A stretch of DNA of 64,000 bases, from NCBI GenBank assembly GCA_944322695.1, contig CALUPQ010000028.1, positions 25,525 through 89,524 of the forward strand, in the 5' to 3' direction. The DNA is from an uncultured Mailhella sp. (GTDB lineage Bacteria; Desulfobacterota; Desulfovibrionia; Desulfovibrionales; Desulfovibrionaceae). Below the pieces are notes generated by a model. That model saw only the letters and a program-made list of their open reading frames with translations, was not told the DNA's origin and did not search any database. Shown here one piece after another: positions 16,765 through 35,033 of the stretch. Each line of letters begins with the position of its first letter. Position 1 is the first letter of the stretch. A program made the position numbers and the translations under genes.

Positions 16765-19011
16765 ATGGGTCTGCTCAACAGCACTCGTGTTTCCGCCACC
16801 GTGGGCGGAAAGGAAATCATTCTGGAAACGGGCCGCGTGGCCCGTCAGGCCAACGGCGCCATCTGGGTTCAGTGCGGCGGCACCGTGGCTCTCGTCACCG
16901 TCTGCGAAGCCCAGCTCGAAACCCCGAAGGACTTCTTCCCCCTCACCGTGGAATACGCCGAACGCATGTACGCCGCCGGCCGCATTCCCGGCAACTTCTT
17001 CCGCCGTGAAATCGGCCGTCCCAGCGACCATGAAACCCTCGTGGCCCGTCTCATCGACCGCCCCATCCGTCCGCTCTTCCCCAAGGGCTACGGCAATGAG
17101 GTGCAGGTGCTCGCCACCGTCATTTCCGCCGACGGCGAAAACGACCCCGACGTGCTCTGCATCACCGCGGCTTCCGCGGCCACCTGCATTTCCAGCATTC
17201 CCTTCGCCGGTCCTGTGGCGGGCGCCCGCCTCGGCCGCGTGGACGGTCAGTTCGTGCTGAACCCCACCAACGACGAACTCAAGCGCTCCGACATGGACAT
17301 CGTGCTCGCCGCTTCCCGCGACGCCGTGGTCATGGTGGAAGGCGAAGCCAAGCTCGTCAAGGAACAGGACCTCATCGACGGCCTGAACTGGGCCCACAAG
17401 GCCATCCAGCCCCTCATCGACGCTCAGGAAGAGCTGGTGAAGCTCGTCGGCAAGACCAAGACCGAATTCACGCCCAAGGAAGACGACCCCGAACTCTTCG
17501 CCTATGTGGAAGAGCTGGCCATCAAGTCCGGCATGGAAGACGCGCTCCGCACCACCGACAAGCTGCAGAGAAAGGACGCCCGCAAGGCCGTCAAGGACAA
17601 GGTGAAGGCCCTCATGGCCACCGACGAGCGCTATGCCGAGGACCCCGTCGCCCAGGCCGCCATCGGCGACGTGCTGGAACACCTGGAAAAGAAGCTCGTG
17701 CGTCAGAGAGTCATCACCGAAGGCACCCGCATCGACAACCGCGACACGAAGACCGTGCGTCCCATCGAAATCGAGACCTCGGTTCTGCCCCGTGCCCACG
17801 GCTCCGTCATCTTCGCCCGCGGCGAAACCAAGACCATTGCCGTCACCACCCTCGGCAGCTCTTCCGACGAACAGAAGGTCGATACCCTGAACGGCGATGA
17901 AAGCAAGCGCTTCATGCTGCACTACAACTTCCCGCCCTTCACCGTGGGCGAAGTGAAGTCCGTGCGCGTGTCCCGCCGCGAAATCGGTCACGGCCACCTG
18001 GCCGAACGCGCCCTCAAGGCCGTGCTGCCCTCCGCCGAGAGCTTCCCCTACACCATCCGCGTGGTGTCCGACACGGTGGAATCCAACGGTTCGTCCTCCA
18101 TGGCCGCCGTGTGCGGCGGCTGCCTCTCCCTCATGGACGCGGGCGTGCCCATCAGCGCTCCCGTGGCCGGCGTGGCCATGGGCCTCATCAAGGACGGCGA
18201 CACCTACACCGTGCTTACCGACATTCTCGGTGACGAAGACGCCCTCGGCGACATGGACTTCAAGATTGCCGGTACCGCCGAAGGCATCAGCGCCATCCAG
18301 ATGGACATCAAAATCAACGGTCTTCCCACCGAAGTCATGGCCCGTGCCATGGAACAGGCCCGCGTGGCCCGTCTGCACATTCTCGGTGTCATGGCCGAAG
18401 CCATGCCTGCCGTGCGTTCGCTCTCTCCCTATGCTCCCCAGCATGAGGAAGTGTTCGTGAATCCCGAAATCATCCGCATGATTATCGGTCCCGGAGGCAA
18501 GAACATCAAGGCCATCACTTCCGCCACCGGCGCCGCCATCGACATCGAGGATTCCGGCCGCATCACCATCTTCGCCCCCACCCAGCAGGCCATGCAGGCC
18601 GCCAAGGAAATGGTGCTCTACTACGACCAGCATGCCGAACTCGGCAAGAACTACAATGCCAAGGTCAAGCGCATCATGGACATCGGCGCCATCGTGGAAA
18701 TCCTGCCCAACCTCGAAGCTCTGGTGCACATCTCCCAGCTCGACACCAACCGCGTGGAAAAGACGGAAGACGTGGCTCACCTCGGCGAAGACATGATGGT
18801 CAAGGTCATCGAAATCAACGGCGACCGCATCCGCGCCAGCCGCAAGGCCGTGCTGCTCGAAGCCCAGGGCATCGAATGGAACCCCGAAGATACGGCCCGT
18901 CCCGCCCGCCGCGAGCGCAGCGACCGCGGTGACGGCGACCGCCGCAGCGAACGTCGCGGCGAACGCCGTGAACGCGGCGACCGTCCCCGCCGTGAACGCA
19001 GAGAAGACTAA
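16765..19011 (+). CDS. pnp: Polyribonucleotide nucleotidyltransferase
   Basis: DFFPLTVEY, GRIPG.FFRRE, RLIDRPIRP, HGS..F.RGET, ESNGSSSMA, DALGDMDFK, KH and S1 domains; follows rpsO. Confidence 0.98.
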   Translation: MGLLNSTRVSATVGGKEIILETGRVARQANGAIWVQCGGTVALVTVCEAQLETPKDFFPLTVEYAERMYAAGRIPGNFFRREIGRPSDHETLVARLIDRPIRPLFPKGYGNEVQVLATVISADGENDPDVLCITAASAATCISSIPFAGPVAGARLGRVDGQFVLNPTNDELKRSDMDIVLAASRDAVVMVEGEAKLVKEQDLIDGLNWAHKAIQPLIDAQEELVKLVGKTKTEFTPKEDDPELFAYVEELAIKSGMEDALRTTDKLQRKDARKAVKDKVKALMATDERYAEDPVAQAAIGDVLEHLEKKLVRQRVITEGTRIDNRDTKTVRPIEIETSVLPRAHGSVIFARGETKTIAVTTLGSSSDEQKVDTLNGDESKRFMLHYNFPPFTVGEVKSVRVSRREIGHGHLAERALKAVLPSAESFPYTIRVVSDTVESNGSSSMAAVCGGCLSLMDAGVPISAPVAGVAMGLIKDGDTYTVLTDILGDEDALGDMDFKIAGTAEGISAIQMDIKINGLPTEVMARAMEQARVARLHILGVMAEAMPAVRSLSPYAPQHEEVFVNPEIIRMIIGPGGKNIKAITSATGAAIDIEDSGRITIFAPTQQAMQAAKEMVLYYDQHAELGKNYNAKVKRIMDIGAIVEILPNLEALVHISQLDTNRVEKTEDVAHLGEDMMVKVIEINGDRIRASRKAVLLEAQGIEWNPEDTARPARRERSDRGDGDRRSERRGERRERGDRPRRERRED

Positions 19012-19415: not shown

Positions 19416-20873
19416 TCAGCCCAGCCGTTCTTCTATTTTCTTCTGCAGCTCCTTGTCCTCACCGGGCTGAAGCATGCGTTCCGGGCTCAGAACGTAGTTA
19501 ATCTCCTCTTCGGTCATGTAGTTGTGCCGAATGACCAGATTATAGACCGATTCACCGCTGTTTAGGGCTTCACGGGCGATGCCCGAAGAACGTTCATAGC
19601 CGATGTAGGGGGCCAGCGCCGTGACGAGACCTATGGAGTTGCGCATGAGCGCGGCACAATGCTCCCTGTTGGCGGTAATGCCGTCCACGCACAAATCCCG
19701 CAGGATATGGCAGGCGTTGCCGAGATGCTTCAGGGAGGCGAAAAGCGTGTAGGCTATCACCGGTTCCATGGCGTTGAGTTCCAGCTGTCCGGCCTCGGCC
19801 GCCATGGAGATGGTCACGTCCTTGCCTATCACGTCGAAGCAGACCTGATTCACCACTTCGGGAATGACGGGATTCACCTTGCCCGGCATGATGGAGGAGC
19901 CGGGCTGACGAGGCGGAAGATTGATTTCGTTCAAGCCGCAGCAGGGGCCGGAGGACAGCAGGCGCAAATCGTTGCAGATTTTGGAGAGCTTCACCACGAA
20001 ACGCTTCAGCAGACCGGAAATCTGCACATAGGCGCAGCAGTCGGACGTGGCCTCCACCAGATTTTCCGCCAGAAAAAGCGGCAGACCGGAGATTTCCACA
20101 AGACGACGCGTCACCAGCGCGGCATAGCCCTCCGGCGTATTGATGCCGGTGCCTATGGCCGTGGCGCCCATGCTGATGTCGCACACCTGCTCGCGGCCTT
20201 CACCGATACGGCGGATGTCTTCACCTATGGTGGTGGACCAGGCGGAGAACTCCATGCCCAGCGTCATGGGCACGGCGTCCTGCATCTGGGTGCGGCCCAT
20301 CTTTATCACGTCCCGGAATTCCACGGCCTTGGCGGCAAAGCCCTGACGCAGGTACTCCATGTCGCCCATGAAGTCCGTCAGCGTCGTGTACAGAGCCAGT
20401 CGGATGGCCGTGGGATAGACGTCGTTTGTGGACTGGGAGCAGTTCACATGATTATTGGGATGGCAGTACTGATACTCGCCCTTCCTGTGCCCCATAAGCT
20501 CCAGGGCGATGTTGGCGATGACCTCGTTGGCGTTCATGTTGCACGAGGTTCCGGCCCCGCCCTGATAGACGTCCACGGGGAACTGGTCGTTGTATTCCCC
20601 GGCTATGACCTTGTCGCAGGCCCGGCAGATGTACCTGCCTATGTCTTCCGGCAGCACGCCGAGCTCCATGTTCGCCATGGCGGCGGCTTTCTTCACATAG
20701 CCCAGCGCCTGGATGAAGCGGGGCATGGACGAGATGGTCGTGCCCGAAATACGGAAATTTTCCAGCGCCCGGCTGGTCTGTATGCCGTAGTACACGTCGG
20801 CGGGGATGTCCAGTTCACCAAGAAAATCGTGTTCCCTTCGTGTCGTGCCCATGAGCCTGTCCTCGTGTTGCAT
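19416..20873 (-). CDS. aspA: Aspartate ammonia-lyase (aspartase)
   Basis: QGGAGTSCNMNANEV, HPNNHVNCSQSTNDVYPT, KMGRTQMQDAVP, GSSIMPGKVNPVIPE, AEAGQLELN. Confidence 0.92.
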   Translation of the reverse strand: MQHEDRLMGTTRREHDFLGELDIPADVYYGIQTSRALENFRISGTTISSMPRFIQALGYVKKAAAMANMELGVLPEDIGRYICRACDKVIAGEYNDQFPVDVYQGGAGTSCNMNANEVIANIALELMGHRKGEYQYCHPNNHVNCSQSTNDVYPTAIRLALYTTLTDFMGDMEYLRQGFAAKAVEFRDVIKMGRTQMQDAVPMTLGMEFSAWSTTIGEDIRRIGEGREQVCDISMGATAIGTGINTPEGYAALVTRRLVEISGLPLFLAENLVEATSDCCAYVQISGLLKRFVVKLSKICNDLRLLSSGPCCGLNEINLPPRQPGSSIMPGKVNPVIPEVVNQVCFDVIGKDVTISMAAEAGQLELNAMEPVIAYTLFASLKHLGNACHILRDLCVDGITANREHCAALMRNSIGLVTALAPYIGYERSSGIAREALNSGESVYNLVIRHNYMTEEEINYVLSPERMLQPGEDKELQKKIEERLG

Positions 20874-21089
20874 GCGTTTGGCCCGCCCCTTTTATGCCGA
20901 CATACGGACAAAGGGCCTCGGGCCTGAGTTTTGTCTCAACATACGCCATATATAAAAATATTCAACAGTTATGAAGACTATAAGCACTCTTTCCGCCGCT
21001 TTTCCCTCTCTTTGTTCAGACGCGGAGGCGGCCCCGGAGCCTGCCGATTCCGGGGAGGGGACCCGCCTCCGCATCAGTGGCAGAAGGCT

Positions 21090-22214
21090 CTATACCCTGT
21101 CTTTAAGCGGCAGATAGTCGATATCGAAACCGTAGTGACGAGGGTCGAGCATGGGCAGGTTTTCAGGGCGCAGGTGCAGTTCTCTGGCGGGAAGGCCGAG
21201 AATGACGAAGTGCTGGCCTTCCTGGCACTCGTTGTTCAGGAGCGGCCGGCCGAGGTTGTATTCTATCTGGCAAATCATGTCCGGGCTGGTGGCATAGGGA
21301 ACGTCATCCAGCCAGGCCACGTGGTTCTCGTTCTTGAACCAGATGCGCAGGGTATGACCGGCGAACTCCGCTTCGCCCTCAAACGTGTTGTAGCCGTCGA
21401 GGTAGCCGTCCTTGACGGTCCATTCGGCGCGCACCAGCCTGCCCTGGAAAAGACGCTTCGCGCCGGTATGCTGCATCACGGCTTCCACCATGTCCTTGCC
21501 GGCTTCCCTGGCCTCGCGGGCGCAGCGGCCGATGCCCACGCATTCGCTGACCGTGCCGTGCACGGTGGCCTTCTTCATGACCGAAGCGGGCACGGGGGAA
21601 AGGGCGAGAGCGGTGTTGCCGAAGGCCGCCATGGCGAGCATCTTGCCGATGCGTTCGCCCAGAGCCTCGTTGACGATATCATACACAACGGACTTGTTGC
21701 CCCATTTGTCCACGGAGACGATGGGAGTCATGCTCTCGCCGAGCAGACAGGAACCGCTCTGCGCCACTTCGGGCAGGGCGCGGCCGCAGTAGTCCGCATC
21801 CACGGCCTTGATGCCGAGAATGGACGCCGTGGCGATGGGGGAAGGAGTGTTGGCGCCGCCGATTTCGGGAATGATGAGCGCATCGACCTTACGACCCGCA
21901 ATCTTTTCAAAGAAGCGGACGGCTTCCACCATGTTGTTCTCGTACTTCCATTCCGTCAGGCCCAGCGACTTCTTCTGAGCTTCCTGCTCAGGGGTGAGCG
22001 GGGCGCGGTTTCCCATGAAGGTCACGCATACGGTAAGGGCGTCGTCGGGAAGAGAAAGGGGGTCCACGCACTCGATGCTTCCCTTTTCCGCAAGTTCGCG
22101 GCTCAGAAGCTTATGGCCTTCCGCAGGAGTTCCGCCGCCGCCGACACCGAGAAGCGTTGCCCCCCAGGTAAGGTCTTCAACGTCAATCTGGGATTTAAGA
22201 ATAATGCCGCTCAT
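21090..22214 (-). CDS. DUF917 family protein (thiohydantoin desulfurase-like), paralog A
   Basis: GATLLGVGGGG, PEIGGANT, DADYCGRALPE, WFKNEN, SPDMI motifs characteristic of DUF917. Confidence 0.88.
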   Translation of the reverse strand: MSGIILKSQIDVEDLTWGATLLGVGGGGTPAEGHKLLSRELAEKGSIECVDPLSLPDDALTVCVTFMGNRAPLTPEQEAQKKSLGLTEWKYENNMVEAVRFFEKIAGRKVDALIIPEIGGANTPSPIATASILGIKAVDADYCGRALPEVAQSGSCLLGESMTPIVSVDKWGNKSVVYDIVNEALGERIGKMLAMAAFGNTALALSPVPASVMKKATVHGTVSECVGIGRCAREAREAGKDMVEAVMQHTGAKRLFQGRLVRAEWTVKDGYLDGYNTFEGEAEFAGHTLRIWFKNENHVAWLDDVPYATSPDMICQIEYNLGRPLLNNECQEGQHFVILGLPARELHLRPENLPMLDPRHYGFDIDYLPLKDRV

Positions 22215-22371
22215 AAGAAACCTCGCTTTGAAAGAGTTGACGACATTCCGGCAATGCTCCCCCGATGGGAAGCAACGGCCCCGACGACCGCGGTACGGAT
22301 TCCCCGGAAAGGGGCGGAACCCGCAGAGTCTTCACGGAACATGCCGCAAAGGCCCCAATCCCGAACAAATA

Positions 22372-23595
22372 TTACAGAAGAGGCTCCGTCGCCCCTTCCA
22401 GCCCTGCCAGGGCGAAAATGAGCAGAAGCAGCGCCTGCGCGCCCTTCCAGCTGTCCTGCGGGTCATACCATTCATCCGGCGAATGCATGTTGCCGCAACG
22501 GCCGTTGCTGTTCACGCAGAGGGCCGGAATGCCCGCGCTGATGGGAAAGTTCGCGTTGGTGCTCGAAGGCGGACAGATGTGTCTTTCCACCTCCACGGCA
22601 CGGGCCGAGGCCAGCGCAGCCTGAACGATGAGGGAATCTTCCGGCACGCTTCCGCCGGGCTTGTCTCCGTAAGGCCTGTCCACCACCGTCAGCGGTGCGG
22701 AACCCGGATGACGGCGATTCTCCTCATCCACGGCTCTTTTCACGCAGTCGAGAATGCGGGCCTCCAGCCTCGCCTTTTCCACGTCGTCCAGAGAACGTAT
22801 GTCCACGTGCATGGACGCCTGCGACGCAATGGAGTTCACCGACGTGCCTCCCGCGACAAGTCCCACGTTGTACGTGGTCTTCACGTGCTGCTCCGGCTCG
22901 ATGTCCGCAATCATGGCTATGGCCCGGCCGAGAGCATGCACGGGATTGACCCGGCCCCAGTTGTTCCAGCTGTGCCCGCCTGGGCCTTTCAGCGTGATTT
23001 CATGGCGCTTGCAGGACACCGCCCCGCGGATGATGTCGAAGTCATGCCCGCTGTCAAGACAGAGATACGCGGCAAGATTCTTCTGCGTTTCCATAAGATG
23101 ACGCACGCCGCGCGCCTCCCCGGGAGCTTCCTCGCCCACGGTCCCTCCGAACATGAGGGTCTTTACCGGTGAAAGCCCGCAGGCGCGGATGGCCCTGACC
23201 ACCGAAAGCTCCGTGGCCATGGACGCCGTATTGTCGGCAATGCCGGGACAACGCAGCACGCCGTCCTCATCTTCGGTCAGCGAGAGCGGAACGTTCTTTC
23301 CGAACACCGTGTCCATGTGGGCTTCCACCAGCACGCGTTCCGTCTCCCTTCCCCGGACAAAGCCGAAGACGTTTCCCACCTCGTCGGTAAAGCAGTCCCC
23401 GAGCCCTGCGGCCTCCAGCCTGCCGAGAAACATGGGGGACCTTATTTCCGGCTCGGTATGAGGAGCTCCGGAAACGAGCACCATCTCCTTCAGGTCAGCG
23501 CGCTTCCTGTCCTCATCGTCGCGAAGAAAGGCAAGAGCCTTCCGTACGCGTTCATCGGCCAGCAGTGCCTCCATGACGGCTTCCATTTTCTTCAT
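22372..23595 (-). CDS. M20/M25/M40-family metallo-amidohydrolase/peptidase
   Basis: DEVGNV, EAHMDTVF, GIADN, GEE, GPGGHSW..GRVNP, GGTSVNSI, STNAN..I..GIP, H.PDEW. Confidence 0.88.
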   Translation of the reverse strand: MKKMEAVMEALLADERVRKALAFLRDDEDRKRADLKEMVLVSGAPHTEPEIRSPMFLGRLEAAGLGDCFTDEVGNVFGFVRGRETERVLVEAHMDTVFGKNVPLSLTEDEDGVLRCPGIADNTASMATELSVVRAIRACGLSPVKTLMFGGTVGEEAPGEARGVRHLMETQKNLAAYLCLDSGHDFDIIRGAVSCKRHEITLKGPGGHSWNNWGRVNPVHALGRAIAMIADIEPEQHVKTTYNVGLVAGGTSVNSIASQASMHVDIRSLDDVEKARLEARILDCVKRAVDEENRRHPGSAPLTVVDRPYGDKPGGSVPEDSLIVQAALASARAVEVERHICPPSSTNANFPISAGIPALCVNSNGRCGNMHSPDEWYDPQDSWKGAQALLLLIFALAGLEGATEPLL

Positions 23596-23605
23596 AATTC
23601 ACTTC

Positions 23606-24406
23606 CTATCGCCAGATGACGGACAGCTCCCGCCGCGGCGGCACCCTTCTGAACTTCACCTTCGGCCAGCCCACCATGAGCCCGCCGAAAATCTGTCTCG
23701 TACTATCCAGCCCCAGGAACTCCACCAGGTCGGGCCGCTCCGCCGCCATGTGCGCCGCCAGGCCGGACCAGCAGCTGCCGAGCCCTGCGGAGGCGAGCAG
23801 AAGCTCCATATCCTCCAGCGCGATGGCGCAGTCCTGAATGCTGGTGGGTATGCCCGCCGTGGCATGGGCGAGCAGCACGCAGGGCGCACCGCGCAGCACC
23901 GTGTCATGTCCGCGGCGGTACTCCTCGCCTATGCTGCGGTAGTTCTCCGACTGCAGAGCCCATTCGGCAATGGCCTCCGCCAGCTGCCTGCGGGCTTCCG
24001 GGCTTTCCAGCACTATCCAGCCCACGTCCTGCCGGTTGCAGGCCGTGGGAGCCCAGCGGTTTTTATCCAGCAAAGATTCCAGAAGCGTCCGCTCCACGGG
24101 CCTGTCGCTGAAAAATCGCACGGAACGGCGCATCTGAAGAAAAAGACTCAGACTCTCCAGAGGAACGCGCCACGTTTCCGGCTCCAGATTCTTCTGGACA
24201 AGCTCATGCCCGTCCTCCCAGAGAGTGACGGCATTCCGGGGACATACGGCATGGCAGTGGCCGCAACCGTGACAGGGACGGGGAACCATCCGGCAGGGGG
24301 CCGCCACGCCGTTCTCAAGACAAAGCTGAGAGGAAGGACAGACTTCCACGCAGGCGGCGCATCCTATACAGCGCCCGGCGTCGATACGGGGATAACGCAT
24401 GCTCAC
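23606..24406 (-). CDS. Nitroreductase-family protein with N-terminal 2x[4Fe-4S] ferredoxin domain
   Basis: CIGCAACVEVCP and CHGCGHCHAVCP; RRSVRFF, WAPTACNRQ, GLGSCW. Confidence 0.9.
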   Translation of the reverse strand: MSMRYPRIDAGRCIGCAACVEVCPSSQLCLENGVAAPCRMVPRPCHGCGHCHAVCPRNAVTLWEDGHELVQKNLEPETWRVPLESLSLFLQMRRSVRFFSDRPVERTLLESLLDKNRWAPTACNRQDVGWIVLESPEARRQLAEAIAEWALQSENYRSIGEEYRRGHDTVLRGAPCVLLAHATAGIPTSIQDCAIALEDMELLLASAGLGSCWSGLAAHMAAERPDLVEFLGLDSTRQIFGGLMVGWPKVKFRRVPPRRELSVIWR

Positions 24407-25077
24407 TCCTCGCTGTTCACAAGTTCCGCCGCAAAACGGGCCACCAGACTGTTCGCCTGTATCACCGGACAGTGGCAGACGCGACGCACGGCCTCCCGGT
24501 AAGGCGCGGTATAGCCCATGCAGTGCAGCAGCACGACGTCGGCCCCCTTCAGAGCCGCGGCCGCCGCTTCGGCCTTCCGCACATCCTCATAGGGCGAAGC
24601 CGCCGCCGTGACGAAACGGCAGGGAAGAGAACCGTAATGTTCCGTAAGCTCGCGCCCCTGGTCGGCAAGCGGAGTAAGCAGTCCGACGGTTCCTCCTTCG
24701 CGCGCCACGGCATCCACGGCGCTGTCGATGATTCTGCCCGCCTCCAGCACCAGCATGCCTTCCGGCACGTTCAGGGAAAAACGGCAGGTGCACAGCAGCA
24801 CGACCGTGCGTACCCCCTGTGCATGCAGAGCCTGAAGTCCCTGTTCCAGCAGCGCCGCGGCCTGCTTTTTCCCAAGGCTGCACTGCGAGCCGTCCCGAAG
24901 ACGGGAAACCAGAGGAAAATCCCCGGGCAAAGGCTCAAGCGCCCTGCGGGCCTCCGCGTCAAGGCCGTCCAGAATGCCGTATTCCACAAGCTCCACATCG
25001 GGCATTTCCCGCTTCATGACGGGCAGAATGTCCGTACGCGGCGTTTCTCCCATGGAAAGAAGACCCAGTTTTTCCAT
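24403..25077 (-). CDS. AroM-family protein (Asp/Glu/hydantoin racemase-like fold), paralog 1
   Basis: LGLLSMGETPRTD, LDGL, SRLRDG, LLCT, ASPY, LHCMGY; start at ATG 25077. Confidence 0.85.
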   Translation of the reverse strand: MEKLGLLSMGETPRTDILPVMKREMPDVELVEYGILDGLDAEARRALEPLPGDFPLVSRLRDGSQCSLGKKQAAALLEQGLQALHAQGVRTVVLLCTCRFSLNVPEGMLVLEAGRIIDSAVDAVAREGGTVGLLTPLADQGRELTEHYGSLPCRFVTAAASPYEDVRKAEAAAAALKGADVVLLHCMGYTAPYREAVRRVCHCPVIQANSLVARFAAELVNSEE

Positions 25078-25078
25078 G

Positions 25079-25768
25079 CTACCGCTCCGACAGAAGTTCG
25101 GCACATACGTGTCCGACAAGCGCGCTGGACTGCAGCACCATGGCGCCGCTTGCCTGCGCGATGAATTCGCGGTGTTCGCGCGTGTACCCCATGCAGTGGA
25201 GAACCACGGCGCCGCAGCCCCGCAAAGTCACGGCCGCCCTTTCCAGCTCCGCCCGGTCTCCGTAGGGACTCGCGTGAGCCGTAACGACCTCGTAGCCCAT
25301 GTCTTCGAACTTTCTTCCGGTAAAGGCCTCCTGCGAGGCAAGCGGCACCAGGGCGCCGAGCCTGGAGCCCGCCGGTACCGCCGCGCGGACGCATCCGTCG
25401 ATGATGTCCCTGCCGGAAAGCAGCGTCAGGCTCTTCGGACAGACAACGCCTTCAAAGGCCCCCGTGCACATGAGCACCGCCACATCCACGCCCTCGGCGG
25501 AAAATTCGCGCAGTTTCGCGTTCACAAGGCCGGTCAGCAAAGGCTTGGACATGACGACGGAAGAACCGTCGTCCAAACGGCTTATGACGGGATGCTCGGA
25601 AGAGGAACGGGGGGCGAGAGCCTCCATCTCCTCCCGGGAAAGCCCATCCAGCAGGCCCTTTTCCGTCACATGGACGGATGGCCCTGCGAGAGCGCGTATC
25701 ACGGGCCCGTAATCCAGGCGGGGACTCTGCCCCACCGCCAAAAGTCCCAGAGTTTTCACGGCAGACAC
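25079..25768 (-). CDS. AroM-family protein, paralog 2
   Basis: LGLLAVGQSPRLD, LDGL, SRLDDG, LMCTG, ASPY, LHCMGY. Confidence 0.85.
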   Translation of the reverse strand: MSAVKTLGLLAVGQSPRLDYGPVIRALAGPSVHVTEKGLLDGLSREEMEALAPRSSSEHPVISRLDDGSSVVMSKPLLTGLVNAKLREFSAEGVDVAVLMCTGAFEGVVCPKSLTLLSGRDIIDGCVRAAVPAGSRLGALVPLASQEAFTGRKFEDMGYEVVTAHASPYGDRAELERAAVTLRGCGAVVLHCMGYTREHREFIAQASGAMVLQSSALVGHVCAELLSER

Positions 25769-25770
25769 CT

Positions 25771-26442
25771 TCAGACAAGAAGTTCACCGGCCATGCGCCC
25801 CATGACGGCGTTGGCCTCCAGCATCAGCGCGCCGCTGGCCTCGGCCACCACGCGCCGGTGCTCGCGCCCGTATCCCATGCAGTGCATCACCACGGCAAAG
25901 CAGCCTCTGAACACCCTGGCGTTTTCAGCCAGCTCCTTCATGTCTCCGTAGGGATTGCCGTGACCGCAGACGACATCGTAGCCCATGTCTCGGTATTTGC
26001 CGCCGGAAAGAGCCTCCTGCTCGGCAAGAGGCACCAGCACGCCGAGCTTCGCACCGGGCGGGCATACGGCGAGCACGGCATGGTCGATAATCTGCCGCCC
26101 CTGAAGAAGAGCGAAGCCTTCCGGCGCCTCCAGCCCCTCGAAGCTGCCCGTGCACATGAGACAGCCCAGAGTCGTGCCCGATTCGAGCATCTCACGCATG
26201 ATTCTGTTGAGATGCGGTACGAGCATAGGCTTGGACACCCTGACGGAGCGGCCGTCGCTCAGCTCCGTGACCACGGGATGCTCGCCCGGCCGGGGAGCCA
26301 TGGCCGCAATATCCTCATCCGTCAGACCGTCCAGCGCGCCGCGTACGTCAAGCCGGACATCCGTGCCGACAATGTCGCGAATCACGGGAACGAAATCGCC
26401 GTCCGTCGACTGCCCTATGCTGATGAGTCCGAGTCTTTTCAT
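25771..26442 (-). CDS. AroM-family protein, paralog 3
   Basis: LGLISIGQSTDGD, LDGL, TELSDG, LMCTG, NPY, MHCMGY. Confidence 0.85.
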   Translation of the reverse strand: MKRLGLISIGQSTDGDFVPVIRDIVGTDVRLDVRGALDGLTDEDIAAMAPRPGEHPVVTELSDGRSVRVSKPMLVPHLNRIMREMLESGTTLGCLMCTGSFEGLEAPEGFALLQGRQIIDHAVLAVCPPGAKLGVLVPLAEQEALSGGKYRDMGYDVVCGHGNPYGDMKELAENARVFRGCFAVVMHCMGYGREHRRVVAEASGALMLEANAVMGRMAGELLV

Positions 26443-26451
26443 AAGACACCT

Positions 26452-27264
26452 CTACTTCTTTCCGCCGTACAGGGTCTTCAGACCAACGGAATGCTCCATG
26501 AGGAACATCATGCCGTAGGCGAGAACGATGTTGATGGTGGCGATGGCAGCCGCCACGGGGTCGAATTCGAAGCGCAGGTAGTCGAACATCTGCACGGGCA
26601 GCGTGGAATACCCGGGCCCGGTGAGCAGCAGGGACAGGGGGAACTGGTCGAAGGAACTGATGAAGGCGAACACGCCGGAGCCGATGATGCCGTTCTTGAT
26701 GTGAGGCAGCGTGACGTAGAAGAAGGTCTGCAGGCGGGTGGCACCCAGGTTGCGCGCGGCTTCCTCCATGGAATAGTCGAAGTTGTACAGCACGCTGCTC
26801 ACCACCAGAAAGACGTAGGGCGTGGTGATGAGCGTATGACCTGCATACAGCCCGAAGAAGGTCTTGCCGCCCACGCCGATGCTGTAGAACGAGACCATGA
26901 GCGCAAGACCGGTGAGGATGGAAGGCAGCATGAGCGGCGAGAGCATGTACGGACGCAGAATGGAGGCCAGTCTGCCCGAATAGCGCACCACGTACAGCGC
27001 TGCGCCGAGCCCTATGAGCGTGGAGGACACCGAGGCGGCCAGCGCCAGCTTAAGGCTGAAGTAGAAGGATTCCATCATCTGCTCGGTGGCGAAGAGCTTG
27101 GAAAACCACTTCAGGGAGAATCCGTCCGGCGGAAAATGCAGGTATTCACCGCCGTTGAAGGCGGCCAGCACCACGATGACCGTGGGCAGCAGCAGAAACA
27201 CGTAGGCCAGAAACACCATGACGTCCACGAGACGGTCGGTAAGGTTCTTTTTCTGTTCTCTCAT
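26452..27264 (-). CDS. ABC transporter permease (PotC-like)
   Basis: FSLKWF, EEAARNLGATRLQTFFYVTLP (EAA loop), FISSFDQF. Confidence 0.9.
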   Translation of the reverse strand: MREQKKNLTDRLVDVMVFLAYVFLLLPTVIVVLAAFNGGEYLHFPPDGFSLKWFSKLFATEQMMESFYFSLKLALAASVSSTLIGLGAALYVVRYSGRLASILRPYMLSPLMLPSILTGLALMVSFYSIGVGGKTFFGLYAGHTLITTPYVFLVVSSVLYNFDYSMEEAARNLGATRLQTFFYVTLPHIKNGIIGSGVFAFISSFDQFPLSLLLTGPGYSTLPVQMFDYLRFEFDPVAAAIATINIVLAYGMMFLMEHSVGLKTLYGGKK

Positions 27265-28130
27265 TACTTCAGCCCCCGCATGGCATGCATGAGCACCTTG
27301 ATGTAGATGCTCAGCAGGGTAACGACGATGACGAACATGATGACGGCCATGGACGCTCCACCGGGCCAGTCAAAGGCATCCAGCGCGGTCTGCACTATCA
27401 TGAGCGGCGTGGTGAGCGTCTTGTTGCCGCCGAGCAGCAGCGGAATGGCATAGGAGCTGATGGTAAGCACGAACACCAGAATGGAGCCCGACATGATGCC
27501 CGGCAGCGACATGGGCAGGGTTATCTTGCGGAAAGCCGTGAATCTGCTCGCGCCGAGGCTGCGCGCGGTATATTCCAGCTCGGGGTTGATGGCCTGAATG
27601 GAGCCGGTGAGAGAAATGACCATGTAGGGCATGTACACCTGCACAAGACCCACCATGACGCCGAACATGTTGTACATGAGCGGCAGCGGCGCATCGATGA
27701 TGCCCGCCTTGAGCAGAAGGTCGTTGATGAGGCCCTTGTCGGCGAGAAGCACCATCCAGCCGTAGCAGCGGATGACCACGCCCACCAGCAGGGGAGAAAT
27801 GACCACCATGTACAGCAGACTGCGGTACTTCGAGCGGCTTCTGGCCAGACGATAGGCCAGAGGATAGCTGATGAGCAGACAGATGACGACCGTGGCCACG
27901 CCGCCGAGCAGCGTTTCGCCGAGTATCGTCCAGAAAAACGGGTCGGTCAGATTGAAAACGTAGTTTTCCAGCGTGAATCCGGGAAGATAGGCGCTGCTCG
28001 AACTTGTGGGCTTGAAGCTGACATATCCGAGAAAGGAATACGGCAGCACGAAGAAAATCATAATCCACAGCGCCGCTGGCAGGAACAGAAGCATGCGGGA
28101 AGCGGCCTGCTGCGTTTTGGTGACGGCCAT
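27264..28130 (-). CDS. ABC transporter permease (PotB-like)
   Basis: LLISYPLAY, VVIRCYGW, GLIN, ARSLGAS...ITLPMSLPGI. Confidence 0.9.
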   Translation of the reverse strand: MAVTKTQQAASRMLLFLPAALWIMIFFVLPYSFLGYVSFKPTSSSSAYLPGFTLENYVFNLTDPFFWTILGETLLGGVATVVICLLISYPLAYRLARSRSKYRSLLYMVVISPLLVGVVIRCYGWMVLLADKGLINDLLLKAGIIDAPLPLMYNMFGVMVGLVQVYMPYMVISLTGSIQAINPELEYTARSLGASRFTAFRKITLPMSLPGIMSGSILVFVLTISSYAIPLLLGGNKTLTTPLMIVQTALDAFDWPGGASMAVIMFVIVVTLLSIYIKVLMHAMRGLK

Positions 28131-28139
28131 GGCAAACTC

Positions 28140-29228
<1,089 letters not shown>

Positions 29229-29500
29229 GATGCCTCTCCAGTCTTTTCACCGTTGCAATGGGGATAGGTTTCGAACATTCGGGGGGCAGGCCGCCCGTCG
29301 GCCTAAAACACTCCGGAAAACTCCTTCTAAAAAGGAGCCTGCCTTTTCCGACAGGACGGCCTTTTCCCCTCGTAAGGAACGGAGCCCCTTTCAGGGCCCC
29401 TCCCTTTCCGGTTGCCGGACCGGGAAAACGCCTTTTTCCGTCAAGGCTGCGGGACTTTCCCGCAGCCTTCCATGCGGCCAAAGCAGGCCGCTCTCATGCA

Positions 29501-30529
29501 TCAGCGGGCAATCTTCTGGTTCCATTCGCGAATGATGCGGCTCTTGGTACCGTTGAAGAACGCCCAGTCGAAAGCCTTGATGCGGCTCACGCCGTCAGGA
29601 CCGACGGGAATGTAGGGTTTGAGGTCTTCCGGCACTTCCACGCCCTTGGTGCAGGGAGTGGTGTAGAAGCGGCGCACGAACTTGGCCTGCACTTCGGGAG
29701 TGAGAAGGTAATCAATCCAGGCATGGGCGAGGTCCTTGTGCTCGGAACCGACATGCACGGCAAAGACCTGTTCGAACATGAGCATGTGTTCCGCAGGTTC
29801 GGACCAGCCAATCTTCACGCCGGCCTTCATGAGACGGGCGATGGCGGGAGTGTCCAGAATGCCGATTTCCACTTCGCCGAGCGTGAGCTGCTTTTCCATG
29901 TCGCCGGAAAATTCCGAAAGCTTGAAGGGCTTGAGCTCGTTAATCTTGTCCATGGCCTTCGAGGTCTGCGTCTGGTCGTTGAACCACACGTCGCCCACGC
30001 TCAGCAGGAACTGGGCGCCCATGGAGTTGGTGGCCGTGTACAGGCCGAGCTTGTTCTTGTATTCGGGCTTCCACAAATCCTTCCAGCTCTTCGGAGGATT
30101 GCTCACCTTGTCGGTAAGATAGGCGATACCCGCAGGCTGTACGACGCCGATGACGCCGCTGGTCTTGCCGTTCTTGTCCTTGAAGGTGATGAGCGCATCC
30201 TTGAGGTGGGGAATCTTCGATTCGTCAAACGGGTCGAAATATCCTTCAAGACGCATCTGGTTCGCCCAGATTTCATTCATCATGACCACGTCGTAGGGCG
30301 CCTTGTCCTTGCCGCTTGCACGCATTTCCGCCAGCCAGTCCTTGGCGAGACCGATGGCGAGCTTGATTTCGCAGTCATGCTTCTTGGCGAATTCAGGAAT
30401 GATTTCCGTCTCGAAGAAGTTCTGGTAGGCACCGCCGTAGCATGTCATAATCAGGGTTTCGCGAGCGTTTGCAAAACCGGGAACGGCAAGAACGGCAGCC
30501 AGAAGAAGAGAGGCAATCTTTGTCTTCAT
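29501..30529 (-). CDS. ABC transporter periplasmic substrate-binding protein (PotD/PotF-like family)
   Basis: Signal peptide; YGGAY, PPKSWKDLWKPEYK, AWIDYLLTPEVQ; adjacent to PotABC-like genes. Confidence 0.88.
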   Translation of the reverse strand: MKTKIASLLLAAVLAVPGFANARETLIMTCYGGAYQNFFETEIIPEFAKKHDCEIKLAIGLAKDWLAEMRASGKDKAPYDVVMMNEIWANQMRLEGYFDPFDESKIPHLKDALITFKDKNGKTSGVIGVVQPAGIAYLTDKVSNPPKSWKDLWKPEYKNKLGLYTATNSMGAQFLLSVGDVWFNDQTQTSKAMDKINELKPFKLSEFSGDMEKQLTLGEVEIGILDTPAIARLMKAGVKIGWSEPAEHMLMFEQVFAVHVGSEHKDLAHAWIDYLLTPEVQAKFVRRFYTTPCTKGVEVPEDLKPYIPVGPDGVSRIKAFDWAFFNGTKSRIIREWNQKIAR

Positions 30530-30545
30530 ATACGTCTCCTTTGCA

Positions 30546-31673
30546 TTATTTGACGAGCTCTTCCATGGGAACGTAGTCGATATCGAAACCGTAATGGCGC
30601 GGCTCCATGAACGGCAGAGCCTTCGGCTCTCTGTGACGGGCGCGGGAGGGAACGGCCATGAAGCTGATGTTCATGCCTTCCTCTATTTCCTGCGTCATGA
30701 TGGGCTGTCCGCTGGCCGTCAGCACCTGCGCCACGCGGTCGGGCGTGGTCACATAGGGCTTTTCATCCAGCCAGGTGATATGGTTCTCGTTCTTGAACCA
30801 CACCTTGAACGTATGTCCTGCCCAGTTTCCGGTGCCTTCAAGCCAGTGATACCCGGAATAGTATCCGTCGGGGATGCCCCATTCCTTTCTGACCACCTTT
30901 CCCTCAAAGAGCATCTTCGCTCCCGTGAAATCCAGAAGGGCCTGACGCACGTCGCCGCCCGCTTCGCGGGTCAGACGCATGTGACGGCCAATTTCGAAGC
31001 ACTCCGTAAGCGTGTTGCGGAATATGTATTTCTTCATTTCGCGGCCGGTCATGAGGAAGAAGGCCATGGCGGTGTTGCCGAAGGCGGCGGTGGCCAGCAT
31101 CTTTCCTTCCCGCTCGGCCAGAGCGCTGTTCACGGTCTCATACACGACGGCCTTATTGCCCCACTTGTCCACGGAGGTCATGGGCGTAAGCGGCACGCCT
31201 TCAATGCAGGGCATGCCCTGCTTGGTTTCGGGCTTCGCCTTGCCCGTGTAGTCCCCGTTTATGGGAGTGATGCCGAGGCTGAGGGCCGTGGCCAGGGGAC
31301 CGGGCGTATTGGCCCCGCCGAGCTCGGAAGGAACGATGCCGGAAATCTTCTTTCCGGAAATCTTCTCCATGAAGCGCAGCGCTTCCAGAAGATTGTTCTC
31401 ATATTTCCATTCCACAAGGCCCAGATTCTTCTTCTGCTCCTCCTGCTCGGGCGTGAGAGGGGCCCTGTTCCCCATGAAGCTCGTGGTGACGACGTACTCG
31501 TCGTCGGGGAAATCGTCAGGGTCCACGGCCGTTACGGGACCGTGCTCGGCCATGGCCTTCTTGAGAAGCCTCAACCCTTCGGAGACAACGCCTCCGCCGC
31601 CGATTCCCTGAAAACATGCGCCCCAGGCGAGGTCTTCAACGTCCAGTTCCGTACTTATCGTAAGATTGGCCAT
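30546..31673 (-). CDS. DUF917 family protein (thiohydantoin desulfurase-like), paralog B; first gene of the operon
   Basis: GACFQGIGGGG, PSELGGANT, NGDYTGKAKPE, WFKNEN; collinear with paralog A; ATG at 31673 with AGGAG RBS. Confidence 0.88.
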   Translation of the reverse strand: MANLTISTELDVEDLAWGACFQGIGGGGVVSEGLRLLKKAMAEHGPVTAVDPDDFPDDEYVVTTSFMGNRAPLTPEQEEQKKNLGLVEWKYENNLLEALRFMEKISGKKISGIVPSELGGANTPGPLATALSLGITPINGDYTGKAKPETKQGMPCIEGVPLTPMTSVDKWGNKAVVYETVNSALAEREGKMLATAAFGNTAMAFFLMTGREMKKYIFRNTLTECFEIGRHMRLTREAGGDVRQALLDFTGAKMLFEGKVVRKEWGIPDGYYSGYHWLEGTGNWAGHTFKVWFKNENHITWLDEKPYVTTPDRVAQVLTASGQPIMTQEIEEGMNISFMAVPSRARHREPKALPFMEPRHYGFDIDYVPMEELVK

Positions 31674-31727
31674 ACGCACTCCTGTCATGCGCGACACGTT
31701 GAACGTGGAAAAAGTCTTTTCATTCTT

Positions 31728-31741
31728 TGTAAACGATTACA
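31728..31741. promoter_or_regulatory. LacI-family operator (TGTAAACGATTACA)
   Basis: Near-perfect 14-bp palindrome with central CG, typical of LacI/GalR operators. It lies 55 bp upstream of the operon start and just downstream of a minus-strand TTGACT -35-like hexamer (31748-31753). Confidence 0.75.
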
Positions 31742-32179
31742 TCCATGAGTCAATAGCATTTTGGGAGTAGTATACCAAGTAAATATAATAATTTCAGTAT
31801 ATTATAAAAAAAATACATAAAATTTCACGTCGTATTCACATATCACATTTTCGTCAATTTTTTTTCAGCGTACAAAGAGGATACTGAAACAAAAATGTTC
31901 TTCTTATGGCTGCAGACAGTCGGTTTCAGACCAGCACAATCAACTGAAATAAAATATATAACTACTAGATATAATTTAATATATTATTCAACAACTCATA
32001 ACGCTCTCATGCCTAAGCACTCTTGAAACTGACACGAGAAAAAACACCAGACCATATCTTTCCATGTGATTTTCCCTTCCCTCATAACAAATTTGACATT
32101 AGTTCATTTTCCAAACACTTTAACAGAAAAGGCGATTCCCTGCATGACGACAGGGCTACATACCGAAAAAGAGGAAACG

Positions 32180-33271
32180 ATGACGAATCCCATAGCCTGC
32201 GACATCACGATGAAAGACGTGGCCGAATTCAGCGGCGTTTCCACAGCCACGGTTTCCCGCGCCATCAACACTCCGGAAAAGCTCAGCCCCGACACCCTGA
32301 AAAAAGTACAGCAGGCATTCCGTACCCTCGGTTATCAGTACAATCCTCTTGCGGCCGCCATGTCTCGCAGCTCCAGCAAACTCATAGGCATCATGATAGG
32401 CAACCTGCGCGAAAACCTGGCTCTGCTGACGCTGGAAGACGTGCAGGCCTATGCCTCGAAGCTCGACTATAACGTACTGGTGGCAAACTCCTGCTTCGAC
32501 AGTCATACCGAGAAAAAAATTCTCTATAATTTCAGGCAGTACAAAACAGCCGCCGTCATCGTCATCGGTCCGGGCCTGCACTGCCACCAGCATATCCGCA
32601 CCGTCCTCGGCAATGATATTCCCCATCTTGTCCTGTGGGACTCCTACGAGAAGAGCGACAACATCAACTTCATCGGCGCCACCAGCGAGAACGTCATGGA
32701 ACAGGCCGTTTCCGCCCTCGTCAGGGCGGGACACCGCCGTATCGGGCTCGGCATGAGTTACTACGCCAACATCCGCAAGGCCCACAGCAGAATCAAGGCC
32801 TTCGGCGACATTCTGCAACGTCTCCACCTGCCCTTCGACGAGGATTCCATGGTTCTTATCAACGACGAACCACGCCTCACCCGCTCCTCGTTCGAGCACG
32901 GCCGTCAGATTATGAAGCAGTTTCTGGAAAAGAAGCATCCGCCCACGGCGCTCATCTCTCCCATGGGCAACATGGCGGCAGGCAGCATATCCTATCTTCA
33001 GGAGTACGGCCTTTCCTATCCGAAGGACATGTCTCTCGTCTGCCTGAGCGACGACGATATTTCCTCCATCTACTATCCCCCGCTCTGCGCCGTCCGCTCC
33101 CAGAAGGAAAAGCTCTTCCAGCTCGTCCATGAATTCGTGGACGGCATTTCTTCGGCGGAACCGCAGCGCATCACCTGCAAACTGCGCTCTTCCGTATGCC
33201 GGAGGAGCTCGTGCATGCCTCCGGCAAAAGAATACCGTGAAGGCCCCGTGCTCAGCCCGCGCAGGGCTTAA
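32180..33271 (+). CDS. LacI-family transcriptional regulator
   Basis: TMKDVAEFSGVSTATVSRAIN HTH, YQYNPLAAAM hinge, GHRRIG, periplasmic-binding-like effector domain. Confidence 0.93.
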   Translation: MTNPIACDITMKDVAEFSGVSTATVSRAINTPEKLSPDTLKKVQQAFRTLGYQYNPLAAAMSRSSSKLIGIMIGNLRENLALLTLEDVQAYASKLDYNVLVANSCFDSHTEKKILYNFRQYKTAAVIVIGPGLHCHQHIRTVLGNDIPHLVLWDSYEKSDNINFIGATSENVMEQAVSALVRAGHRRIGLGMSYYANIRKAHSRIKAFGDILQRLHLPFDEDSMVLINDEPRLTRSSFEHGRQIMKQFLEKKHPPTALISPMGNMAAGSISYLQEYGLSYPKDMSLVCLSDDDISSIYYPPLCAVRSQKEKLFQLVHEFVDGISSAEPQRITCKLRSSVCRRSSCMPPAKEYREGPVLSPRRA

Positions 33272-33437
33272 CGCATCCGTCACCCCTCTTCACGGCAAAA
33301 AATCCTTATGCAGGCCGTGATTCGCATCCGGCCATCCGGCTTTCCTCAGCAGGGAAAGCCGGATGGCCCCGTCCCGCTCCGACGTTCCTTCCCTTTGCGG
33401 AACAACGGATGGGAGCGGAGTGTCCCGAGGAAAAACG

Positions 33438-33953
33438 ATGAAGGAGCTCATTCTTGTCGGCGGCCCCATGGGCGTGGGAAAGACCAGCACCTGCCGGGAG
33501 CTTCTGCACCGGCTCTCCCCTTCCGCCTTTCTGGACGGAGACTGGTGCTGGACCATGTCTCCCTTCGTGGTGAACGGCGAAACAAAAAACATGGTGCTCG
33601 ACAACATAGGCCACATTCTGAACAACTTTCTGCGCTGCTCCGCCTACCGCTACGTCATCTTCTGCTGGGTCATGCACTCGCAGTCCATCGTGGACGACAT
33701 TCTGCGCAGACTCGACCTGACCGACACGAGAACCACGCTTTTCACCCTGACGGCTTCGGAACAGGTGCTTCGCGCACGGCTGCAGCACGACATTGATGAA
33801 GGAACAAGGAGTCCCGGCGTCATTGAGCGGAGCCTGGAGAGGCTGCCCCGGTATGCGGCCATGAAAAGCGTGAACATAGATGTAAGCGACATCACCCCCG
33901 CCTTGGCGGCAGCACGGATGGAGGCTTTTCTGAAGGAACCGGAACGTTCCTGA
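33438..33953 (+). CDS. Small P-loop nucleotide/small-molecule kinase (AAA_33-like)
   Basis: LILVGGPMGVGKT Walker A, FLDGDW, LRARL lid. Confidence 0.8.
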   Translation: MKELILVGGPMGVGKTSTCRELLHRLSPSAFLDGDWCWTMSPFVVNGETKNMVLDNIGHILNNFLRCSAYRYVIFCWVMHSQSIVDDILRRLDLTDTRTTLFTLTASEQVLRARLQHDIDEGTRSPGVIERSLERLPRYAAMKSVNIDVSDITPALAAARMEAFLKEPERS

Positions 33954-33957
33954 AGAC

Positions 33958-34000
33958 GAAAAAAGCCGCGTGTCTCCTCTTTTCAGAAAAGCACGCGGCT
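33958..34000 (-). terminator. Terminator-like hairpin between convergent genes
   Basis: AGCCGCGTG...CACGCGGCT stem preceded by an A-run (T-run on minus strand). Confidence 0.55.
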
Positions 34001-34772: not shown

Positions 34773-35033
34773 ATCTCGTCCTTGGGGTGAAATTTCCGTC
34801 CGCGCTTTGCGCGGCAAGACGGAGTATAGCCGCTCCCCCGCCGACAGGGAAGTGCCCGGCAAAGGACTTGCCGGACGTGTGCAATAGCGGTATCATGCCC
34901 CTTCACCTCGGCTTTTCTCTTCGGAAAAGCCCTGATTCTGGTGTCCGTACGGGGCGTCGGCGCTGCTTCTGCCCCTTTTGAAACGACGTGCGCGCCAGCC
35001 GACACGCCACGCACAGCGCAAAGCAGGTTTGAC

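Follow-up and report, generated by a model that had tools for sequence, protein, structure and literature searches.

A predicted LacI-repressed operon of a Mailhella-like sulfidogen as a lineage-specific variant of the DUF917/AroM module with a likely aspartate outlet

We analyzed a stretch of 64,000 nucleotides (contig CALUPQ010000028.1; in the following, the window) from the metagenome-assembled genome (MAG) of a Mailhella-like member of the Desulfovibrionaceae (2.27 Mb on 206 contigs, ~77% complete). Among public genomes, uncultured MAGs assigned to Desulfovibrionaceae and Mailhella come closest to it. Pfam and NCBIfam assignments confirmed twelve co-oriented genes on the minus strand between positions 19416 and 31697, belonging to the families named in an earlier note on this DNA, termed here the original prediction (Table 1). 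In the order of transcription these genes encode DUF917-B, a periplasmic substrate-binding protein (SBP), an ABC ATPase, two permeases, AroM1, AroM2 and AroM3, a Fer4-nitroreductase fusion, an M20 metallohydrolase, DUF917-A and the aspartase AspA. The genes from the ATPase to the M20 enzyme abut or overlap, as had been noted, with intergenic distances of −4 to +10 bp. Wider gaps separate the SBP from the ATPase gene (272 bp), the M20 from the DUF917-A gene (157 bp) and the DUF917-A gene from aspA (216 bp). The pnp gene (16663–19011, + strand) with its strong terminator lies immediately to the left of the block.

A divergent LacI gene with a candidate operator, the proposed control element, was found at the other end. 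The LacI product comprises a helix-turn-helix, located at residues 48–92 of the long open reading frame (ORF), and a Peripla_BP_3 domain; as the helix-turn-helix begins only at residue 48, the ATG at 32177 is probably the true start. None of the NCBIfam equivalog models reached its cut-off for this protein. The candidate operator TGTAAACGATTACA, 14 bp in length, fits the LacI/cre consensus, with half-sites matching at 5/6 positions around a central CG, and is the only match in the window at two or fewer mismatches. It lies between a promoter-like site and DUF917-B, ~30 nt upstream of this first gene, and a search of the window for a second LacI operator before DUF917-A or aspA found none. The promoter-like site, a match to the consensus pattern only, is situated in the 480-bp AT-rich divergent region. 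Thus, the helix-turn-helix, the periplasmic-binding-protein-like core and a palindrome with a central CG near a promoter, as characteristic of the LacI/GalR family, are all present, and the block is predicted to form a LacI-repressed uptake and catabolism operon relieved by an effector.

Two of the wider gaps contain potential RNA elements. In the SBP/ATPase gap (29229–29500) we observed a weak hairpin with a T-run at 29355–29338 (−), which may be a partial terminator, as gives surplus SBP transcript in ABC operons. The DUF917-A/aspA gap contains at 20990–21080 (−) a strong GC-rich inverted repeat, GCGGAGGCGG...CCGCCTCCGC, devoid of a T-tract and followed by an AT-rich promoter-like stretch; the repeat may serve in RNA processing or attenuation, or it may mark the boundary of a transcription unit. 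The original prediction is hence corrected in that aspA has its own upstream promoter-like stretch and GC-rich hairpin.

The whole block is kept in three related MAGs at 70–97% protein identity. In two close relatives it occupies the same genomic place, with flanks of 93–94% DNA identity and 76–88% for aspA and the cluster. Its description as inserted after pnp holds for the position beside pnp, not for the edges of an insertion: the post-pnp region differs in a same-genus genome (G457), and as its synteny there is unrelated, the island edges could not be set. The GC content dips to 0.53–0.58 over 28000–34000 (DUF917-B, SBP, intergenic region and LacI) compared with ~0.61–0.63 around it, consistent with acquisition of this low-GC end of the cluster from elsewhere. 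Of 401 genomes sampled from the phylum, AroM was detected in 8; the 12 other Desulfovibrionaceae sampled gave no match, and neither did a 99%-complete same-genus genome that carries aspA elsewhere. Because of this sparse occurrence in the phylum and the absence from the same-genus genome, we consider the cluster accessory.

A rearranged version provides the best evidence for the extent of the pathway. In the Candidatus Mailhella merdigallinarum-type loci the order is DUF917A-SBP-DUF917B-ATPase-permease-permease-AroM-AroM-Fer4-nitroreductase-AspA-aminotransferase with a convergent M20 gene. Here, AspA directly follows the nitroreductase, and the M20 enzyme is PahZ2-like and 63% identical to that of the window. 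As both AspA and M20 stay with the DUF917, AroM and nitroreductase genes through this rearrangement, they appear to belong to the pathway.

Table 1 Features of the gene block in the window, and an orphan protein at other loci.
Feature	Position	Strand	Basis
aspA (aspartate ammonia-lyase)	19416-20873	-	TIGR00839, 722 bits vs cut-off 681
DUF917-A (S-Me-THD-like)	21090-22214	-	Pfam; family motifs complete
M20 metallohydrolase, cytoplasmic, PahZ2 homologue	22372-23595	-	PDB 7ljh match
2x[4Fe-4S] ferredoxin domain (N-terminal) + nitroreductase-fold flavoprotein fusion	23606-24406	-	Pfam Fer4_7/Fer4 + Nitroreductase
AroM3	24403-25119, probable start ATG 25077	-	Pfam PF07302, 179 bits
AroM2	25079-25768	-	Pfam PF07302, 182 bits
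AroM1	25771-26442	-	Pfam PF07302, 172 bits
ABC permease, PotC-like	26452-27264	-	Pfam BPD_transp_1
ABC permease, PotB-like	27264-28130	-	Pfam BPD_transp_1
ABC ATPase with TOBE domain, PotA-like	28140-29228	-	Pfam ABC_tran + TOBE_2
Periplasmic SBP, PotD-like fold	29501-30529	-	Pfam SBP_bac_8/6/1/11
DUF917-B (S-Me-THD-like)	30546-31697	-	Pfam PF06032 + PF20906
LacI-family repressor	32177-33271, longest ORF from 32066	+	Pfam LacI HTH + Peripla_BP_3
Candidate LacI operator TGTAAACGATTACA	31728-31741	palindrome	read in sequence
Operon promoter-like site GTGAAA-16 nt-TATAAT	31801-31828	-	consensus scan
~280-aa orphan (other loci)	L183:17616-18500; L006:14001-14846 (-); L158:11028-11840; L055:13562-14110

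To place the block in a wider context, we compared gene neighbourhoods in other genomes. DUF917 and AroM recur together with importers and M20 or DUF1177 genes across phyla. Orthologues of the SBP (50–54% identity) stood beside DUF917, AroM or racemase genes in 4/4 contexts examined, some of them with M20 or DUF1177; these contexts comprise Neomoorella mulderi and three metagenome contigs, two of which are near-identical versions of one locus. The order in N. mulderi is SBP-ATPase-DUF917-permease-permease-DUF917-racemase-AroM-orphan-M20, and the three contigs contain either racemase and DUF917 or DUF1177 and AroM. Since the SBP orthologues sit with the same enzyme set, this set defines a cross-phylum module with its own dedicated importer. 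A Limnochordales MAG shows the order IclR-permease-permease-SBP-ATPase-racemase-DUF917-DUF917-AroM, which we count as similar and not as a fifth orthologous locus because its SBP is only 29% identical. The orthologues were obtained from the protein database, as a genome scan with the SBP returned distant PotD genes only. At 29 DUF917 loci that are more distantly related, Dpp/Opp ABC systems (14–15), Asp/Glu/hydantoin racemases (14) and NCS1 permeases (5) were the most frequent neighbours.

The importer itself is related to the polyamine system. Residues E36, D168, E171 and D257 of E. coli PotD are the acidic residues that bind the polyamine. In a HMMER alignment to 8y5h_E, the SBP of the window reads N, S, A and Q at these positions, so that the acidic residues of PotD/PotF are lacking, and it scores 51 bits against the NCBIfam PotD model (cut-off 582). 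The protein is thus a predicted PotD-like fold with a ligand other than a polyamine.

A literature search for DUF917, PF06032 and PF07302 found only a paper on cyclodipeptide oxidases (CDO), which reports an enrichment of DUF917, AroM, racemases, peptide transporters and peptidases in the surroundings of non-CDPS, nitroreductase-like CDO genes (bioRxiv 10.1101/2023.09.25.559410). The pairing of nitroreductase with AroM and DUF917 observed here agrees with this enrichment. The locus had originally been put forward as a new system; it is rather a variant of a module whose co-occurrence that paper had already noted. The part of the claim that concerns the biochemistry stands, the parent module never having been characterised. 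Compared with the general DUF917/AroM/DUF1177/hydantoin-racemase-like module, the window likewise combines DUF917, AroM, an importer and an MH-clan-type metallohydrolase, and its nitroreductase-fold flavoprotein is shared with the CDO-centred clusters, whereas DUF1177, a PF01177 racemase, the ~280-aa orphan and CDOB are lacking. Specific to the window are the three AroM copies, a lineage-specific DUF917 duplication, an importer of the Pot type instead of Dpp/OPT, the Fer4-nitroreductase, the PahZ2-like M20, AspA and LacI. The orphan is a conserved protein of ~280 residues (45–53% mutual identity) that matches no Pfam or NCBIfam family and adjoins AroM in Moorella, Peptococcaceae and Desulfobacterota loci; it is absent from the window and probably represents an additional component of the general module.

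AroM was named in E. coli decades ago. To our knowledge, AroM, most of DUF917 and DUF1177 have no known function. The three paralogues of the window all match PF07302 (172–182 bits), and their alignment revealed two invariant cysteines, C101 and C192. By HHalign (probability 88%, E 3e-6), these two residues fall on the conserved cysteines of the PF01177 racemases found in the module and thus occupy the positions of the racemase catalytic pair. AroM1 retains both cysteines and lacks two arginines present in AroM2 and AroM3. PF01177 itself gave only a sub-threshold match on AroM3 and is otherwise absent from the cluster, and a PDB sequence search with AroM gave no match. Based on the cysteine pair, two-cysteine stereoinversion is predicted for the AroM paralogues. 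In other genomes, AroM is mostly translationally coupled to DUF1177 beside Dpp, OPT or TctC importers, and it also occurs with DUF917 and a HyuA-like protein, with a HyuA/B fusion or with a peptidase of family S51. A PDB sequence search with DUF1177 found no match; its predicted fold is that of a zinc exopeptidase of the M28/M17 type (Foldseek E 1e-7, TM ~0.5, model pLDDT 76). As DUF1177 resembles a zinc exopeptidase, the M20 enzyme would be its counterpart in this cluster and may take the role that DUF1177 holds elsewhere.

The E. coli aroM gene shares a transcript with aroL, which encodes shikimate kinase. Beyond LacI, the window contains an AAA_18 kinase-like gene (33363–33953) and a divergent EPSP-synthase-like gene (34941–36857); the presence of AroM genes near shikimate-type genes may be a coincidence.

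Both DUF917 proteins belong to the DUF917 superfamily, with PF06032 and PF20906 domain scores of 136+160 and 120+149 bits and the fold of PDB entry 2o3i, which the AF2 model of DUF917-A (pLDDT 94) matches with a Z-score of 38.8 and an rmsd of 2.5 over 332 residues. Foldseek and a wide VIA search yielded no other fold relatives, the remaining matches having Z ≤5, and as this sole relative is unannotated, the fold yields no mechanism. DUF917-A keeps the family-wide motifs GGGG, ExGGxNT, DxDxxGRAxPE and FKNEN. In DUF917-B, GRAxPE is changed to GKAKPE, D139 to N and N327 to T, where the GKAKPE motif and the T in place of N327 suggest a shifted specificity of the DUF917-B lineage. In a maximum-likelihood tree, DUF917-A and DUF917-B are sisters and each pairs with an orthologue of Ca. 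M. merdigallinarum, with 99/99 support for the A pair together with the B pair. The idea of an ancient A/B pair was dropped in view of this topology, which indicates a lineage-specific duplication in common with Ca. M. merdigallinarum. The two paralogues, the only DUF917 genes detected in the MAG, fall inside a clade (support 100/99) that also holds DUF917 proteins from Neomoorella mulderi, a Peptococcaceae MAG and a metagenome contig. This clade goes with the special SBP type, racemases and peptide or NCS1 transporters and is found in many anaerobes and thermophiles.

The enzymes at the end of the operon point to aspartate. The M20 enzyme matches PahZ2 (PDB 7ljh) along its full length (E 1.9e-60, 208 bits, residues 6–399 on 25–424), its motifs HMDTV, GIADNT, GEE, LDSG and MHSPDEW line up with those of PahZ2, with the H, D, EE, D and H motifs all retained, and the next-best solved M20 structure follows at E 1e-5. 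The original prediction noted that M20 enzymes include N-carbamoyl and N-acyl amino-acid hydrolases; with 43 bits against TIGR01879 (cut-off 204), the protein is not carbamoylase-like but a close PahZ2 homologue. PahZ2 releases free aspartate from α- and β-linked oligo-aspartate; it is periplasmic and acts together with PahZ1 on synthetic polyaspartate (PMC13017698). As compared to this oligo(aspartic acid) exo-hydrolase of Sphingomonas sp. KT-1, the M20 of the window has the metal and catalytic motifs aligned but lacks the N-terminal extension (its residue 6 corresponds to residue 25 of PahZ2), and no PahZ1 is present. An aspartate product would suit the adjacent AspA, which scores at the level of an equivalog for aspartase (TIGR00839). 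On the basis of the PahZ2-like M20 and this aspartase, L-aspartate is the likely product of the pathway and fumarate its likely outlet. The MAG also contains several flavoprotein genes of the fumarate-reductase/succinate-dehydrogenase type.

The Fer4-nitroreductase gene follows AroM in three Mailhella-type loci, and in another, unrelated Desulfobacterota genome a Fer4-nitroreductase, an AroM-like gene and an M28 peptidase lie side by side. A metagenome entry (P0065) presents AroM and Fer4-nitroreductase as a single 450-aa product, 70% identical to the enzyme of the window, which is either a genuine fusion or a gene call across the 4-bp overlap. Comparison with AlbA (8uc3) gave a weak partial match (E 2e-5). 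A cyclodipeptide oxidase of CDOA and CDOB was considered and rejected: beside the nitroreductase there is no CDOB (PF19585) ORF, for which the abutting flanking genes leave no room, and a 2x[4Fe-4S] domain is fused instead.

From the observed gene content, operon architecture, protein families, conservation and co-occurrence we infer the catalytic steps, their order and the substrate as follows. The ABC importer of PotD-like fold would take up a small chiral compound derived from aspartate, either a cyclic amide or a pseudo-peptide; candidates are a cyclic ureide of the 5-carboxymethyl-hydantoin/dihydroorotate type, aspartimide, an Asp diketopiperazine or an iso- or D-aspartyl peptide. The three AroM paralogues would equilibrate its stereoisomers by a two-cysteine racemase mechanism, and DUF917-A and DUF917-B would hydrolyse the ring or an amidine-type carbon. 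The Fe-S/flavin enzyme, tied to the ferredoxin pool, may transfer two electrons at a C=C/C-C bond adjacent to a carbonyl. The PahZ2-like M20 would free L-aspartate, which AspA would convert to fumarate and ammonium for fumarate and energy metabolism. Our candidate order of substrate preference is aspartate-derived cyclic ureides and imides, then aspartate-containing diketopiperazines, then iso- or D-aspartyl peptides. We give roughly even chances to this overall reading, in which the block is a LacI-repressed uptake and catabolism operon and a lineage-specific variant of the DUF917/AroM module that turns an aspartate-based chiral cyclic amide or pseudo-peptide into fumarate. It retains from the original prediction the repressor-controlled uptake and catabolism of a chiral amino-acid-derived compound with an aspartate/fumarate outlet, and abandons the sulfur-removal step.

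Several observations weigh against this reading. The DUF917 fold has no informative relative, and we know of no substrate for any member of the DUF917 clade, AroM, DUF1177 or the SBP clade. The M20 enzyme shares ~35–40% identity with PahZ2 homologues elsewhere, so its specificity may differ. In 50 neighbourhoods of PahZ2-like homologues we found neither AroM nor DUF917 nor any recurrent partner; as these genes stand alone, the M20 appears to have been recruited into the cluster in the Mailhella lineage. Likewise, no aspartase other than aspA was found in this 77%-complete MAG; the gene has its own promoter-like site and upstream hairpin, and one Mailhella MAG lacks it behind the cluster. It may hence be a gene of general function that happens to lie beside the operon. 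Finally, the related Moorella and Limnochordales modules contain neither aspartase nor nitroreductase, indicating that the aspartate outlet is lineage-specific.

The logic of the proposed operon, import, racemisation at C-alpha, ring hydrolysis and release of an L-amino acid by a metallo-amidohydrolase, is that of the classical hyu clusters, which consist of an NCS1 permease, an amidohydrolase hydantoinase, HyuE and an M20 L-N-carbamoylase. However, 0/4 of the defining components (hydantoinase, PF01177 racemase, carbamoylase-type M20, NCS1 permease) are in the cluster, which has no hyu homologue: DUF917 stands in the place of the hydantoinase and AroM in that of HyuE, joined by the PahZ2-like M20 and an ABC importer. 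By analogy, the operon would work like a hyu cluster without being one.

The PahZ2 relationship also allows for the salvage of damaged or unusual aspartyl peptides (β-/iso- and D-aspartyl) from aged proteins, Gram-positive D-Asp cross-bridges or polyaspartate-like material, which we regard as unlikely. In such a pathway AroM would epimerise D residues, M20 would cut α- and β-Asp links, DUF917 would open aspartimide, and the aspartate would go to AspA. Among close relatives of the M20 enzyme only PahZ2 has been characterised, and its substrate contains D and L units as well as α and β links (PMC13017698, PMC4456602). Three racemase paralogues would fit multiple stereo- and regio-isomers, and the neighbours of AroM in other genomes include the S51 peptidase (the Asp-dipeptidase/cyanophycinase family), the exopeptidase-like DUF1177 and Dpp/OPT importers. 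The importer of the window, however, is of the Pot and not the peptide type, the NCS1 permeases and the HyuA- or HyuA/B-type genes near DUF917 and AroM elsewhere favour ring compounds, and the Fe-S nitroreductase is left without a role. Such a role would arise in a reductive route for orotate, dihydroorotate or 5-carboxymethylhydantoin, where the flavoprotein would reduce a C=C bond, DUF917 would yield N-carbamoyl-aspartate, M20 would be a ureidosuccinase and AspA would form fumarate. Each enzyme class of the scheme reported for Clostridium oroticum has its analogue here, in the Fe-S flavoenzyme, the hydrolase for a cyclic amide, the M20 amidohydrolase and the outlet via aspartate. In addition, PF01177 proteins that accompany the module in other phyla show the first-cysteine motif SCAADPG, typical of hydantoin/allantoin racemases, and NCS1 permeases adjoin DUF917 in five of the 29 distant loci. 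We nevertheless consider this route improbable, as the M20 is unlike carbamoylases both by TIGR01879 and by the ErtE model (29 vs 520 bits), nothing supports pyrimidine reduction by nitroreductase-fold enzymes, and three racemases are superfluous for it. There is also a slim chance that a ferredoxin-linked nitroreductase-fold enzyme, DUF917 and a PahZ2-like amidase form an unassigned anaerobic pathway that starts from an aspartate ureide or imide, unsaturated or cyclic, and leads via aspartate to fumarate, with candidate substrates again of the orotate, dihydroorotate or 5-carboxymethylhydantoin type. If true, this cyclic-ureide pathway would provide genes for the long-orphan carboxymethylhydantoinase and ureidosuccinase, the first non-sulfur function of DUF917, the first function of AroM and a new electron-sink nutrient for gut sulfidogens.

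Sulfur chemistry could enter in two ways. The original prediction assumed that a thiohydantoin or thioureido amino-acid derivative is imported, racemised, desulfurised by DUF917 with release of H2S or a thiol and hydrolysed towards aspartate, a new organosulfur-to-sulfide route. The only curated names in DUF917 are indeed thiohydantoin and S-methyl-thiohydantoin desulfurases (NF058529, NF058532 and Pfam S-Me-THD), the intact motifs of DUF917-A make a hydrolytic chemistry at a ring carbon plausible, and the host is a sulfidogen. These ergothioneine desulfurases share the PF06032 + PF20906 superfamily and the family-wide motifs with the proteins of the window; a literature search on them found nothing. 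In contrast, DUF917-A scores 69 bits against the thiohydantoin-desulfurase model NF058529 (cut-off 440) and 72 bits against the S-methyl form NF058532 (cut-off 450), and DUF917-B 41 and 37 bits, respectively, 6- to 12-fold under the equivalog cut-offs. Clade and gene context differ as well: in Thermotogota, Bipolaricaulota, Chloroflexota and archaea, the partners of this clade are racemases, transporters of the peptide and NCS1 types and proteins resembling exopeptidases, and the cluster is devoid of an ErtE-like carbamoylase. The best genome-wide D-hydantoinase match reached 187 bits against a cut-off of 393, so that the hydantoinase already noted as missing is also not detected above cut-off in this 77%-complete MAG, and no component of the cluster indicates thiocarbonyl chemistry. 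The statement that this is not the known ergothioneine pathway agrees with the low ErtE score of the M20, while ergothionase and thiourocanate hydratase were not searched for. As judged from the sequences, nothing specific speaks for desulfuration by DUF917, which is not supported, and we consider the sulfur-removal route highly improbable.

Cysteate, the sulfonate analogue of aspartate, offers the other connection. The cluster may handle a cysteate-containing amide or ring and feed sulfite respiration, with the enzymes of aspartate metabolism working alongside or on a mixed substrate. In Bilophila, CuyA and CuyB turn cysteate into pyruvate, ammonium and sulfite (PMC11193023), an established function. 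In Ca. M. merdigallinarum (L196:4176-8978), a GntR gene separates the cluster from three genes in front of it, which encode CuyA, a CuyB-like racemase and a transporter of the Na+/H+-antiporter family; the D-cysteate sulfo-lyase scores 498 bits (cut-off 450) and the racemase 162 (cut-off 190). In the unrelated Peptococcaceae MAG (L006:8424-9434), a CuyA equivalog (531 bits vs 450) lies directly upstream of DUF917-M20. The source MAG has cuyA on another contig, split over two contig ends (C100:20215-21075 and C49:2-253); its overlapping halves share 73% and 81% identity with the gene of M. merdigallinarum; a CuyB-type racemase was not found in this MAG, the lone PF01177 match being a single gene on C120. 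Bilophila wadsworthia, also a gut member of the Desulfovibrionaceae, likewise combines a two-cysteine racemase with a lyase that deaminates an acidic amino acid (PMC11193023), whereas in the window the lyase is an aspartase and the racemase-like proteins are AroM and not PF01177. Since the adjacency is confined to two lineages among ~100 DUF917 loci and cuyA is not on this contig, we keep the cysteate link as a minority reading, the least probable of those considered. The cuyA gene, the cuyB-like gene and the transporter of M. merdigallinarum already form a self-sufficient cysteate unit, so that the adjacency may reflect a catabolic island.

AroM, DUF917 and DUF1177 thus recur as a single module from gut bacteria to thermophilic archaea. 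The variant in the window is unusually informative, as two flanking enzymes, the PahZ2-like hydrolase and the aspartase, have a recognisable chemistry; because these end enzymes point to aspartate, a limited set of substrates would suffice to test the module. Neomoorella mulderi (GCA_001594015.1), a named isolate genome with the same SBP-linked module, provides an alternative to the uncultured MAG. For gut ecology, the operon would supply fumarate to a Mailhella-type sulfidogen, and a sister species physically links the cluster to genes for the conversion of cysteate to sulfite.

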